From Candidatus Thorarchaeota archaeon (lineage in GTDB: Archaea > Asgardarchaeota > Thorarchaeia > Thorarchaeales > Thorarchaeaceae), in the NCBI GenBank assembly GCA_048882485.1, contig JBHLRP010000008.1, forward strand, positions 13,671 through 77,670: a stretch of 64,000 bases of DNA, read 5' to 3'. The stretch's first letter is position 1. Every line of letters starts with the position of its first letter. Below are positions 45,770 to 51,660 of this stretch, piece by piece. A program made the translations under genes and the position numbers. The notes beneath the pieces were generated by a model. The model had not been told where the DNA came from and made no database searches. It saw nothing but the letters and a program-made list of their open reading frames with translations.

Positions 45770-47209
45770 ATGCGAATTAAGACTCACCAAAAACTGTTGA
45801 CAAGCGTTGGCGTCGACATTGGCACTTCTACATCACACGTTGTCTTTAGTAGCATCCTTCTTGAAAGAAACCTAAAGAGCCGTACCGAGAAGTTTGAGAT
45901 CAAAGAAAAGAAAGTACTTCACAAGGGGCCCATTCATTTCACGCCCCTCTCTGGCCCAGACACAATCGATTTTGAGGCTCTCAGGAATCTCATTCTTGCA
46001 GACTACGCTGATGCTGGTTTCGAGCTTACTCAAATAGATACAGGCGCCGTGATTATCACAGGGGAGACCGCACGCAAAGAGAACGCTGAGGAAATAGTGG
46101 AAGCTCTTGCAGGTGAAACCGGAAAATTCGTGGCAGCAACAGCTGGACCCAATTTTGAAAGTGTCTTGGCGGCTCATGGTGCTGGAGCTGTGATGAAGTC
46201 CGCAGAAAGAGGTCTGACCATTTTGTCTTGTGACATCGGGGGTGGGTCATCGAATATTGCAGTCTGCAGAGATGGGAAGGTGTTCGCGACCGCAGCGATC
46301 AATGTTGGCGGTCGTTTGGTAGCAACTGATGATGCAGGTACTATTATCCGACTCGAGGAAACTGGAAAGCGACTTGGCGAAAAGGTCGGCCTCAGCCTGA
46401 AGCTGGGCCAATATCTTGACGAACCCTCAAAGCAACTATTGGCACAAGCACTTGCTGATGCTCTCATTGAAGCCATAGAAGGGAAGCAGGGGTCAGAGAT
46501 CACAAACATGCTAATGATGACTCCTCCTCTCGCCTTTCAGGACAAAGTGGATGAAGTCATGTTCTCTGGCGGCGTTGCTGAGTTTATCTATGGGCTAGAA
46601 ACCAATGAGTATAATGACCTAGGACAATTGCTGGCTCAATCAATTGTGAAATTGGTCGATAAGTACGAGATTCCAATGGCGGAGCCAGAACACCGCATCC
46701 GCGCAACTGTGATTGGTGCAGGCCAATCAAGTCTTCAAGTGAGCGGGTCAACAACCTTCCTTTCCTCAGGGCTGGAATATCCACTGAGGAATCTGCCCGT
46801 CATCACTCCCCATGTGCCGAAAGGAAAGACAACAATGGAGAAAGTGCGGGATGCAATCCAGAATGCTCTCAAGAGATTTGATATCAAGGAAGGCATTGAT
46901 CCTCTTATTCTTGCTTTTGAGGATGCAGTCCGTCCATCCTATGAAAGCCTCACCGAATTTGCCAAGGGTATTGTAGCTGGTTTGCCTAGAACCACTGCTA
47001 ATAGTTCGCCTATTTTGATGTGCTTTGACACAGATATAGGCAATAGTGTCGGAAATGTGATTAAGCGCGAGACTGGGGTGACCAATGAGATTCTTTCCAT
47101 TGATGAGATATCTCTGCATGAAGGTGATTTCGTCGACATTGGCGAGCCTATAATTGAAAACGTCGTGGTTCCAGTAGTCGTAAAGACACTGGTCTTCGAG
47201 GAACGATAG
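45770..47209 (+). CDS. eutA: ethanolamine ammonia-lyase reactivating factor EutA
   Basis: SVGVDIGTSTS, TGAVIITGETARKENA, FVAATAGP, DIGGG, IRATVIGAG and VPVVVKTL motifs. Confidence 0.88.
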   Translation: MRIKTHQKLLTSVGVDIGTSTSHVVFSSILLERNLKSRTEKFEIKEKKVLHKGPIHFTPLSGPDTIDFEALRNLILADYADAGFELTQIDTGAVIITGETARKENAEEIVEALAGETGKFVAATAGPNFESVLAAHGAGAVMKSAERGLTILSCDIGGGSSNIAVCRDGKVFATAAINVGGRLVATDDAGTIIRLEETGKRLGEKVGLSLKLGQYLDEPSKQLLAQALADALIEAIEGKQGSEITNMLMMTPPLAFQDKVDEVMFSGGVAEFIYGLETNEYNDLGQLLAQSIVKLVDKYEIPMAEPEHRIRATVIGAGQSSLQVSGSTTFLSSGLEYPLRNLPVITPHVPKGKTTMEKVRDAIQNALKRFDIKEGIDPLILAFEDAVRPSYESLTEFAKGIVAGLPRTTANSSPILMCFDTDIGNSVGNVIKRETGVTNEILSIDEISLHEGDFVDIGEPIIENVVVPVVVKTLVFEER

Positions 47210-49643: not shown

Positions 49644-50147
49644 CTAATATCTGCGATCACGGTCGCGTTCTCGATATCCGCCGCCGCCACGTCTATCTCT
49701 GTAGCCACCACCACCGCGACGGTCTCTGTAGCCTCCCCCGCCGTAGCCGCCACGTCCTCCATATCTCCTTGGTGGACGTTCATGCTCTTCGGCTGAGAGA
49801 TCGTTTTCCTCGTTGACTTCTTCAATTGGCTCCTCAGCTTCATTGATGATGCCGTATCTACCAATATTGAGTCGAAGATTCCTCTGAAAGAGTCCAGTAT
49901 ATCCGTTTTCAAGCTTGTAGGTCTTGCCAACCTCCAGTGCGTCAATGGAGTCATCCCATAGGGGCATTACGACTATGCCACTGGCATCTCCAATGACAAT
50001 GTCTGCAACACGATGGGTTTCGCCATCATGCCTTGAGGTCACCTCGCGAGCCTCGCCCTTTGATAGGACCTTGAACGAAATTGTCAGGTTCTTCATACGG
50101 GGTTTAAGGTCTGAGATGATAGCAAGAACAGGTTCCGGTTCGCTCAT
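49644..50147 (-). CDS. ssb: single-OB-fold single-stranded DNA-binding protein with RGG/RD-rich tail
   Basis: ISDLKP, IGDASG...LWD and NGY...LNIGRYG motifs (crenarchaeal SSB-like); tail (GGGGYRDRR)x2-3. Confidence 0.88.
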   Translation of the reverse strand: MSEPEPVLAIISDLKPRMKNLTISFKVLSKGEAREVTSRHDGETHRVADIVIGDASGIVVMPLWDDSIDALEVGKTYKLENGYTGLFQRNLRLNIGRYGIINEAEEPIEEVNEENDLSAEEHERPPRRYGGRGGYGGGGYRDRRGGGGYRDRRGGGGYRERDRDRRY

Positions 50148-50323: not shown

Positions 50324-50788
50324 CTAGCCTAGCTTCTGAGGAGGATTCAATCTACTCACGTAATACATGCCAGCGATTAGGACCAGAGGTCCCAGGAAGA
50401 TAATTGCAGAGCCAATACTCCAGAGAAAGCTGAACTCAGCATTCAGATTGACCAGAATATTCCCCGAGATGAACATGATAATCCCGGATAGCATGATGAT
50501 GATTCCAGGTTTCGTGTCCCTCTCTTCAATCACAGGCTCAGGAGCAGATGCAACAGTTGGTGCATCAGATGTCTTGACATCAGATTTGTAGAAGCGGGTT
50601 CCATCTGATGTCAGTCTTCCAGATAGCTTGCCTTCCTCTACCAGCTCCATGAGCATCTTCTGAGTCGCTTCAGGTGATAGGCCAATCCGCGAGCTCAACA
50701 TGTCTATTGAACTAACATTGTTCTCCACAAGGTCAACTAGATTAACTGCACTCTCCGAACGAATGCTTGTCGTTTCGCCACCTATCAT
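50324..50788 (-). CDS. winged-helix (PCI-like) domain protein with two C-terminal TMs
   Basis: SIDMLSSRIGLS...MELVEEGKLSGRL winged helix followed by two hydrophobic helices. Confidence 0.7.
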   Translation of the reverse strand: MIGGETTSIRSESAVNLVDLVENNVSSIDMLSSRIGLSPEATQKMLMELVEEGKLSGRLTSDGTRFYKSDVKTSDAPTVASAPEPVIEERDTKPGIIIMLSGIIMFISGNILVNLNAEFSFLWSIGSAIIFLGPLVLIAGMYYVSRLNPPQKLG

Positions 50789-50943
50789 TGTCCATCACAA
50801 TTGAAAACACACCGAGTCAGAATATAACACATAGCCACTATCTAGGCTCACAATTAAGGTTCACATGTTGTGGACTCGAGTAGTGACTTCTCGTTTTCGT
50901 TCAGCGCAATTCTACAGACGCGTCAATTCTTAATTCACAATAC

Positions 50944-50974
50944 TTATATAAAGTATTATGTAATACTATTACAT
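50944..50974 (+). promoter_or_regulatory. TATA box and palindromic operator, copy 1
   Basis: TTATATA at 50944; ATGTAAT-ACT-ATTACAT at 50958-50974. Confidence 0.7.
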
Positions 50975-51026
50975 GAAAGACTGAATCTGCTGGTGTTCGA
51001 GCGGTGACAGTCACGAGGTGAGATGG

Positions 51027-51170
51027 ATGACTAACAAGAAGAATCGCAAATGGTGGAGTCGGATTGCCAGGCGTATTGCCAAGCGCTACAGGAATGAAAC
51101 GATCTATCGCGAATACACGCGAAGCCCTGGCTGGCCCAGTGTGGCGTTTTGGTCAAGTCTGTACAAGTGA
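51027..51170 (+). CDS. 47-aa cationic, Trp-rich micropeptide (copy 1)
   Basis: MTNKKNRKWWSRIARRIAKRYRNETIYREYTRSPGWPSVAFWSSLYK. GAGGTGA site upstream; paralogous to 51296-51400. Confidence 0.75.
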   Translation: MTNKKNRKWWSRIARRIAKRYRNETIYREYTRSPGWPSVAFWSSLYK

Positions 51171-51210
51171 TAAGACACTGAATGACAATCATAATACGAT
51201 TCCGCAATAC

Positions 51211-51241
51211 TTATAAAGAGGAATACGTAATACAATTACGT
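51211..51241 (+). promoter_or_regulatory. TATA box and palindromic operator, copy 2
   Basis: TTATAAA at 51211; ACGTAAT-ACA-ATTACGT at 51225-51241. Confidence 0.7.
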
Positions 51242-51295
51242 GGAAAACTGAAACCGCGCGGGAGACCGGGCGGTGACAGCCACGAGGTGATATAA

Positions 51296-51400
51296 ATGAC
51301 AGACAGGATAAATCGCAATCAGTCGAAGAGGATTGGCAGGCGAATTGGAAGGCGCTTCACGCATGAGTCGATCTATCACGACTACTTTGCTGAGGCATAG
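51296..51400 (+). CDS. 34-aa Arg-rich micropeptide (copy 2)
   Basis: MTDRINRNQSKRIGRRIGRRFTHESIYHDYFAEA. GAGGTGA site upstream; 14/30 identical to copy 1, with synonymous codon changes. Confidence 0.7.
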   Translation: MTDRINRNQSKRIGRRIGRRFTHESIYHDYFAEA

Positions 51401-51459
51401 ATGATGGCCTCTTGCGTGTGATGATCATGTCTGGACAAGCAAAAAGGAAGTAGGTTATT

Positions 51460-51558
51460 ATGGCAATCGAAAAGAATGAAAAGAGAAAGAAGGCATACAG
51501 AAAGCAGATCCATAGTACTAGAGCTATCGCATGGGCTTACCAGTATAAGGCCGGGTAG
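51460..51558 (+). CDS. 32-aa basic micropeptide
   Basis: MAIEKNEKRKKAYRKQIHSTRAIAWAYQYKAG; AGGT upstream. Confidence 0.45.
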   Translation: MAIEKNEKRKKAYRKQIHSTRAIAWAYQYKAG

Positions 51559-51600
51559 TGAAGATGGCTCTTTTGGAGCTCTTTATTCTTAGCGCTTCTA

Positions 51601-51660
51601 GTGAGCCCGTGCTTATGTCCTCAGGGGCATGAGCACTCTCACACATTTTGTGTTTCTTAA
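51601..51660 (+). terminator. 3' hairpin and T-rich tract closing the micropeptide locus
   Basis: GTGCTTATGTCC/GGGCATGAGCAC 12-bp stem (two G-U on the plus strand), extended by GTGAG/CTCAC, then TTTTGTGTTTCTT. Confidence 0.55.

Follow-up and report, generated by a model that had tools for sequence, protein, structure and literature searches.

A candidate operator-controlled operon of tandem microprotein genes in a Thorarchaeota genome

The FbpABC proteins of B. subtilis, which are Fur-regulated, and the small acid-soluble spore proteins are small basic proteins of stress regulons that are made upon derepression. The peptides described here are likewise tiny, mostly basic, hydrophilic and paralogous, but they differ from those proteins in lacking a Pfam match, in having an acidic-aromatic conserved part and three promoter types, and in their Asgard host. 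Type I toxin-antitoxin loci resemble the present locus in their ORF of fewer than 60 codons, structured leader and tandem copies; their toxin, however, is hydrophobic and forms a transmembrane helix (PMC8309996), whereas here there is no such helix, the ribosome site is open, no antisense unit was found and control would be exerted by a candidate DNA operator. Leaderless bacteriocins such as aureocin A70 and garvicin KS also come from operons of several cationic, leaderless peptides of 30-34 residues. These and other multi-peptide bacteriocins are hydrophobic (GRAVY +0.15 to +0.7) and have export and immunity genes (PMC6131525), in contrast to the hydrophilic peptides of this locus, next to which no such genes were seen. 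As to regulation, the closest parallels in fold class and placement are aCcr1 of the Sulfolobales (PMC9976892, PMC9976878) and CdrS, both self-regulated repressors of the ribbon-helix-helix (RHH) type and with a site next to the core promoter. Unlike aCcr1, the RHH-like protein considered here has 110 residues with an extra N-terminal helix and a C-terminal coiled coil and, unlike those of aCcr1 and CdrS, its candidate regulon is made up of some six genes, all uncharacterised. Among the operator sites examined, none preceded a gene of cell division. Finally, ARPP-1, predicted to be a cysteine enzyme, occurs in gene neighbourhoods linked to ADP-ribose, DNA damage and conflict, some of them two-gene arrangements with a WYL regulator or a HIRAN domain (PMC9503650). 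Here ARPP-1 is likewise paired with a putative transcription factor, but the regulator is RHH-like rather than WYL and microproteins form part of the regulon. Small regulated proteins under a self-repressing factor are of a known kind. These peptides and their regulon are undescribed: neither the libraries nor the papers searched contain a description of either. The host group, the Thorarchaeota, comprises uncultured relatives of eukaryotes whose gene regulation is nearly unstudied.

The window, that is, the whole stretch of DNA analysed, covers 64,000 nucleotides of a Candidatus Thorarchaeota assembly (GCA_048882485.1, contig JBHLRP010000008.1). The locus of interest is flanked by a divergent winged-helix membrane gene (50324-50788, minus strand) and a convergent trmO gene, and consists of three tiny genes of 47, 34 and 32 codons (Table 1). 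A preliminary description had proposed two tandem units of about 267 bp, each ordered TATA box, palindrome, leader hairpin, GAGGTGA and small ORF. All of these elements were present in both units, and the duplication was borne out by two direct repeats in register with each other, one of 53 nt (79% identity, spacing 267) and one of 128 nt (74% identity, spacing 269), as well as by blastn alignment of unit 1 with unit 2 (181 nt, 74.6%, E 7e-27); blastn found no third copy in the 3.96 Mb genome. The peptides were as described, the first carrying a net charge of +11 and four Trp residues in 47 aa and the second a net charge of +4 in 34 aa, with 14 identities over the first 30 positions of an ungapped alignment. 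The suspected loss of the tail of copy 2 was traced by pairwise alignment to a frameshift after codon 30, and the DNA similarity extends beyond the copy-2 stop because a relic of the frameshifted tail lies there. Two features had been missed: the third conserved gene (51460-51558) and the hairpin at 51601-51642. In the 47-aa peptide, codons 12-19, a 12-nt internal repeat, form a basic amphipathic stretch, codons 23-30 form the conserved motif, and the Trp/Pro tail is specific to the genus.

Table 1. Features of the microprotein locus (positions in the window)
Feature	Position	Strand	Basis or remark
TATA box, unit 1	50944-50951	+	sequence; invariant columns in 8 orthologous promoters
Candidate operator, unit 1, YGTAATASTATTACR	50959-50973	.	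between TATA and likely start site; conserved as sequence
5' leader hairpin, unit 1	50979-51012	+	z -1.3; ends upstream of ribosome-binding site
Shine-Dalgarno GAGGTGA, unit 1	51015-51021	+	sequence
Class A microprotein, long form, 47 aa	51027-51170	+	tail pN/pS 0.47
TATA box, unit 2	51211-51218	+	sequence
Candidate operator, unit 2, one mismatch	51226-51240	.	sequence
5' leader hairpin, unit 2	51239-51283	+	-26.7 kcal/mol, z -5.6
Shine-Dalgarno GAGGTGA, unit 2	51284-51290	+	sequence
Class A microprotein, short form, 34 aa	51296-51400	+	frameshift removed tail; short form kept in other genomes
Relic of lost tail codons of copy 2	51401-51445	+	pairwise alignments
Class C microprotein, 32 aa	51460-51558	+	second gene of unit-2 transcript
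3' hairpin closing operon, terminator or stabiliser	51601-51642	+	-29.1 on plus strand, -17.6 on minus strand; z -4.9

ORF1 and ORF2 belong to class A, and the third ORF to class C, of a family of peptides of 26-49 residues. The short C-terminal motif is T-x-[DE]-S-[LI]-Y-x-[DE]-Y in class A peptides and the Tyr-rich S-T-x-A-[IL]-x-Y-A-Y-x-Y in class B/C peptides, both borne on a variable, hydrophilic and mostly basic N-terminal stretch. A profile built from the third gene found class B/C members in 68 of 85 genomes of this archaeal family, a figure that rose to 80 upon iteration, with up to 13 copies per genome; the iterated search found none in 314 other Asgard genomes. Class A was found by profile search in 30 of the same 85 genomes. 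The two profiles align weakly (E 0.0014, probability 7%), and diverged A/BC hybrids that score with both occur in genomes the profiles had missed; the classes therefore probably form one superfamily present throughout the archaeal family. Elsewhere, the ORFs occur in operons of two to four coupled tiny ORFs, and their stop codons often overlap the ribosome site of the next gene. In class B/C, the terminal Arg codons themselves often constitute that site. The source genome carries microprotein loci on at least five other contigs. Two of its short contigs, C131 and C157, hold near-identical peptide loci (L092 and L170) that could be strain variants or contamination, the latter being put at 5.8% for this assembly.

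The family comprises hundreds of genes, mostly skipped by annotation. The peptides had no match in Pfam, NCBIfam, PHROGs, PADLOC, Rfam, PDB sequence profiles or the ESM Atlas. Relatives of ORF1 bear the names of Thorarchaeota or Promethearchaeota hypothetical proteins. With a profile of the genus type, two representatives were recovered among 1.84 billion proteins and six proteins among 5.8 billion, all hypothetical, and two of the three window peptides were missing from a collection of 15 billion proteins. No viral relative of the peptides was found.

The preliminary description had taken synonymous differences at codons 2, 12, 16 and 24 as a sign of selection on the peptide. The differences are real, but the window pair alone gives a pN/pS of 0.94; this evidence was therefore too thin, though the conclusion stands. 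Over the core, pN/pS in frame was 0.62 for class A (23 sequences) and 0.54 for class B/C (80 sequences), and off-frame values were 1.1-1.5. At the genus level, values of 0.55 for codons 12-30 and 0.47 for the tail were obtained. Third codon positions are the most variable, the RNA of the core is unstructured, and the conserved Ser is written by both TCN and AGY codons. It is highly likely that the ORFs are selected as protein on a short C-terminal motif, and that their transcript starts with a hairpin, has a strong and accessible ribosome site and closes with a second hairpin. The proposal of selected and regulated micro-genes of an undescribed family thus gained support from selection, conservation and the lack of library matches. 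One might still regard the loci as largely neutral, spreading promoter-ORF cassettes of little function: the value for the window pair and the frequent decay and rearrangement of copies (class C is broken in L003, and the start is lost in L090 and L196) would suit such an origin. This is highly improbable given an in-frame constraint that spans 16 genera, retention in 80 of 85 genomes and conservation of start codon, ribosome site and operator; furthermore, neither mobile-element features nor a viral match were found.

What selection maintains was approached by comparing charge and motif. In class A, net charge ranges from -6 to +11, and from -6 to +4 outside this genus, and most orthologues contain no Trp. 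The designation of an Arg-rich family therefore holds in this genus and fails for class A at large, where the acidic-aromatic motif is what is kept; in this class selection appears to act on the motif and not on charge. The amphipathic, basic, Arg-rich stretch (moment about 1.0) is limited to the class A peptides of this genus. By comparison, all 81 class B/C peptides are basic (+2 to +10). Several resemblances were considered and set aside. A proteasome HbYX tail is contradicted by the position of Tyr, which is second-last in just 14 of 81 B/C peptides. A likeness to Sda, to FbpA or to the final helix of the histone fold reflects a generic helix-capping pattern and received no support from searches, and profile comparison revealed no similarity between the peptides and the helices of the candidate repressor discussed below.

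Could the peptides act on membranes, as type I toxins or as antimicrobials of the leaderless multi-peptide kind? ORF1, with its 47 aa, charge of +11, four Trp and moment of about 1.0, would invite this interpretation, as would tandem peptides of 30-34 residues in one operon and their rapid gain and loss. Yet GRAVY values lie between -1.2 and -1.3, which also speaks against the antimicrobial peptide of classical type that had been suggested; no signal peptide or hydrophobic stretch was detected in any of 130 peptides, the best 17-residue Kyte-Doolittle mean being -0.02 (A) or 0.78 (B/C) and below 0.8 in all. A census of the genes that recur around some 120 loci included no ABC exporter or immunity gene. 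None was seen at the window locus, and the gene that follows some other copies is an MFS, not an ABC, gene. The amphipathic stretch, moreover, is confined to one genus. The type I toxin alternative also fails on the leader: besides the missing hydrophobic helix, all 12 leaders and flanks that were folded have a hairpin that is complete upstream of the ribosome-binding site, so that this site is not sequestered. A membrane-directed activity is thus very unlikely.

Full-length centroid folds left the ribosome site mostly open, the long-range pairing of unit 2 being weak and on unconserved bases. Leader covariation was not significant (one pair; 125 of 500 shuffles scored as high), and the locus had no Rfam match. 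The 3' hairpin element also ends other operons of the peptide family. From these folds, the transcript appears to be built for output rather than silencing, with control at the DNA level. A putative fourth peptide, "class D", was discarded: its conserved motif coincided with the 3' hairpin in 24 of 24 cases (z -1.9 to -9.4) and is therefore, in part at least, the shadow of an RNA structure. The corresponding window ORF (51558-51632) is broken in L003. In many operons an open, coupled ORF of 35-40 codons enters the 3' hairpin and stops within it (e.g. L013:2385-2504), and its translation might modulate the hairpin.

The palindrome of each unit lies 7-8 nt downstream of the TATA box and has two matches in the window versus 0.14 expected. 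Judging from archaeal promoter layout, a protein bound at this position would block initiation. The alternative of an RNA stem was rejected, as the palindrome shows no covariation and is conserved as sequence. The exact palindrome occurs in 51 of 87 genomes and a reversed control in 3. With a matrix built partly from these same sites, the operator was located ahead of 29 of the 32 class A ORFs, which represent two to four genera; it also lies upstream of a gene for a 110-residue RHH-like protein in nine genera. The exact operator was present in 23 of 28 genomes with the RHH-like gene and in none of 16 without it, counts in which kin are not independent; class A was absent from the same 16 genomes. 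Two nearly complete genomes (G100 and G026, 97-98%) have neither gene nor site, and their congeners have both. Outside this archaeal family, homologues of the RHH-like gene have similar palindromes upstream in two Asgard families (L166, L249-L251). The right half of the 15-bp palindrome reads AGTATTA, the motif bound by the archaeal RHH protein aCcr1 (PMC9976892). As to the identity of the protein, Pfam RHH_1 matched 5 of 19 members (best E 0.0014), all RHH scores being below curated cut-offs; the top fold match, a weak one, was the RHH part of NikR (2.3 A over 34 columns), and a monomer model showed both helices and no strand. The protein also matched AbmR below cut-off (E 9e-5), the nucleic-acid region of which resembles CopG (PMC6282994). 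Overall, the palindrome is most probably an operator linked to the RHH-like protein as its repressor.

The operator regulon comprises the RHH-like gene itself (for example L015:3494-3832; 1-5 paralogues, one at 18616-18993 of contig C3 of the source genome), ARPP-1 (identified at E 4.5e-32), a shortened ARPP-1 paralogue, the class A + C operon, a protein of 54-58 residues and a small membrane-anchored protein. In many cases ARPP-1 and an RHH-like paralogue are transcribed away from each other with the operator in between, an arrangement also seen in the source genome (contig C3); this pairing was found again in an Asgard family (L168) distinct from the two with similar palindromes. The neighbourhoods reported for ARPP-1 give a weak hint of stress as the trigger. 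The candidate pair of regulator and operator, with its six-member regulon, is open to immediate in vitro test and would provide the first archaeal regulatory context for ARPP-1. Several members deserve a separate mention. The protein of 54-58 residues is conserved and of no known family (L014:2942-3112, contig C23 of the source genome; L078, L181, L189, L191-L193); a fold model of the 54-residue form was unusable (pLDDT 51). The shortened ARPP-1 paralogue, of about 180 aa, seemingly lacks the catalytic insertion (L183, L184, L188, L194, L195) and is found under the operator near 49300-49640 of contig C12 of the source genome. Small membrane-anchored proteins are encoded behind the operator and a long leader (L015:2651-2917, L077, L140:1974-2297, L185:273-686). 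Three consecutive operator sites surround the RHH-like gene on contig C1 of the source genome, and in G003 the operator separates an RHH-like paralogue from a gene that by eye resembles a photolyase (L164:2-1243).

Another possibility is that the peptides are small basic proteins which bind nucleic acid or ribosomes and are produced in large amounts under stress or in dormancy, in the manner of SASP, protamine-type or hibernation-factor-like proteins, with the Tyr helix stacking on bases or oligomerising. The uniformly basic class B/C peptides would fit, as would the +11 and +4 of the window class A peptides with their Arg-rich helix, the high-output transcript, the many copies under several promoters, the relaxed N-terminal sequence and the occurrence of ARPP-1 elsewhere among DNA-damage and conflict genes (PMC9503650). 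This interpretation is doubtful, however, since class A is neutral or acidic outside the genus and its motif includes two acidic positions; nor did the peptides match SASP-like families or, among PDB sequence profiles, solved ribosomal or chromatin proteins.

Further copies of the peptide genes lie behind two other promoter types. The second type, found in 72 of 87 genomes, also drives a bactofilin-like gene, which is therefore co-regulated with the peptides, and an MFS gene; a weaker copy of it, with the start codon at the same offset, forms the promoter of the divergent winged-helix gene in the window (50790-50880, minus strand). A third type drives additional peptide copies. The bactofilin-like gene behind the second promoter type has 417 residues and occurs in several genera (L169:710-1960, L203:1570-2820, L229, L233). 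At 12 fetched loci from five genera, a gene of one MFS_1 subfamily lies directly 3' of the peptide genes on the same strand, and in L228 the peptide stop and the MFS start overlap. This subfamily is present in 66 of 76 genomes of the archaeal family, and in 18 of 19 genomes of a second Asgard family, where the peptides were not found. Copy numbers of peptides and MFS genes correlate (rho 0.65, and 0.60 after allowing for genome size), the values being inflated by linkage and kinship. The window operon does not adjoin an MFS gene, and most class A operons are without a transporter. Between peptide ORF and MFS start, the leader contains an inverted repeat, TGGTCAC ... GTGACCA (L218, L219, L228, L095, L097, L206, L091), a possible structured RNA or protein site.

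Two explanations that take the transporter as their starting point were weighed against these arrangements. The peptides could be cis-acting leaders, passage of the ribosome over the Tyr codons controlling the MFS gene and the window copies being displaced derivatives. The ORFs do precede the MFS gene in 12 loci, one of them overlapping its start, two to three Tyr codons stand close to the stop, and stops often overlap the next ribosome site. A co-oriented gene behind the leader, the attenuator arrangement, is found for the MFS-linked copies; at the window, however, the next gene is the convergent trmO. There and in many other operons the transcript ends in a hairpin facing a convergent gene and the motif is still selected, its non-Tyr positions being conserved as well as the Tyr ones, which renders this explanation quite unlikely. 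Alternatively, the peptides could be exported signals or precursors of modified peptides, with the N-terminus as leader, the Tyr-rich C-terminus as product and the MFS protein as exporter. Arrays of paralogous short ORFs, a conserved C-terminal core following basic residues, the MFS linkage and the copy-number correlation would all agree with export. In modified-peptide precursors, however, it is usually the leader and not the core that is conserved, and here the C-terminal core is conserved and the N-terminus variable. No radical SAM, P450, YcaO, ligase or protease gene recurred in a neighbour census of about 120 peptide loci, there is no signal peptide, and most class A operons are unaccompanied by a transporter; in addition, the core is nearly identical across genera and would therefore confer little kin specificity. 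A role as exported signal or precursor is thus unlikely.

We favour the reading of the locus as an operon of soluble microproteins that would act in trans as modulators by docking on one conserved protein, to which we assign a probability of roughly 0.38. A short conserved motif, a helix-capping start, a variable tether and, in class A, independence from charge all favour a trans-acting docking peptide. Against it, the amphipathic basic stretch of the class A peptide in this genus fits nucleic-acid or membrane binding equally well, the depression of pN/pS below 1 is moderate and copies decay often; moreover, the window operon has no MFS gene beside it, and the MFS subfamily also occurs in an Asgard family where no peptides were found. 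We postulate that the RHH-like protein acts as a repressor, binding between TATA and start site at its own gene and at the genes of the regulon, and that a stress or growth-phase signal releases it. Derepression would then yield the three peptides of the operon, two of class A and one of class C, in bulk, alongside ARPP-1 and the rest of the regulon. The docking step is proposed tentatively: the motif would fold as a short capped helix, dock on one conserved cytoplasmic partner and tune it, and copies behind the two other promoter types would bring other signals into the same output. By association, the likeliest named partner would be the MFS subfamily encoded behind the peptide genes at what is probably the ancestral locus. 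A broader and rather doubtful extension would see in the family a microprotein signalling layer that has no known parallel, with one docking motif in up to 13 copies, three different regulators and several signals integrated on one conserved target, possibly the lineage-expanded MFS transporter or a bactofilin cell-shape programme, by analogy with eukaryotic short-linear-motif regulators. Should the motif prove to be a docking helix, Asgard archaea would offer an example of free microproteins exerting control through a short motif.

The interval between the winged-helix membrane protein gene and trmO was compared in related genomes. G001 and G015 have one 48-codon gene and the third gene, G005 has the arrangement of the window, G011 has a long copy and a broken third gene, and L196 and L198 contain whole-operon duplicates, short then long. 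From these varied arrangements, the ancestral unit would consist of operator, class A gene, class C gene and hairpin, and it appears to duplicate and decay often. The 34-residue short form recurs in G005, L196 and L198, so that it represents a variant that has been kept and not an accident of this one genome.

Two other genes of the window drew our attention. At 49644-50147 on the minus strand lies a gene for an OB protein that binds single-stranded DNA; its tail of repeats, rich in Gly, Arg and Tyr, is like that of eukaryotic RGG proteins. Further upstream, at 45770-47209 on the plus strand, is an EutA-like gene (ethanolamine-lyase reactivating factor, by eye), with no evident eut neighbours between 44 and 58 kb.
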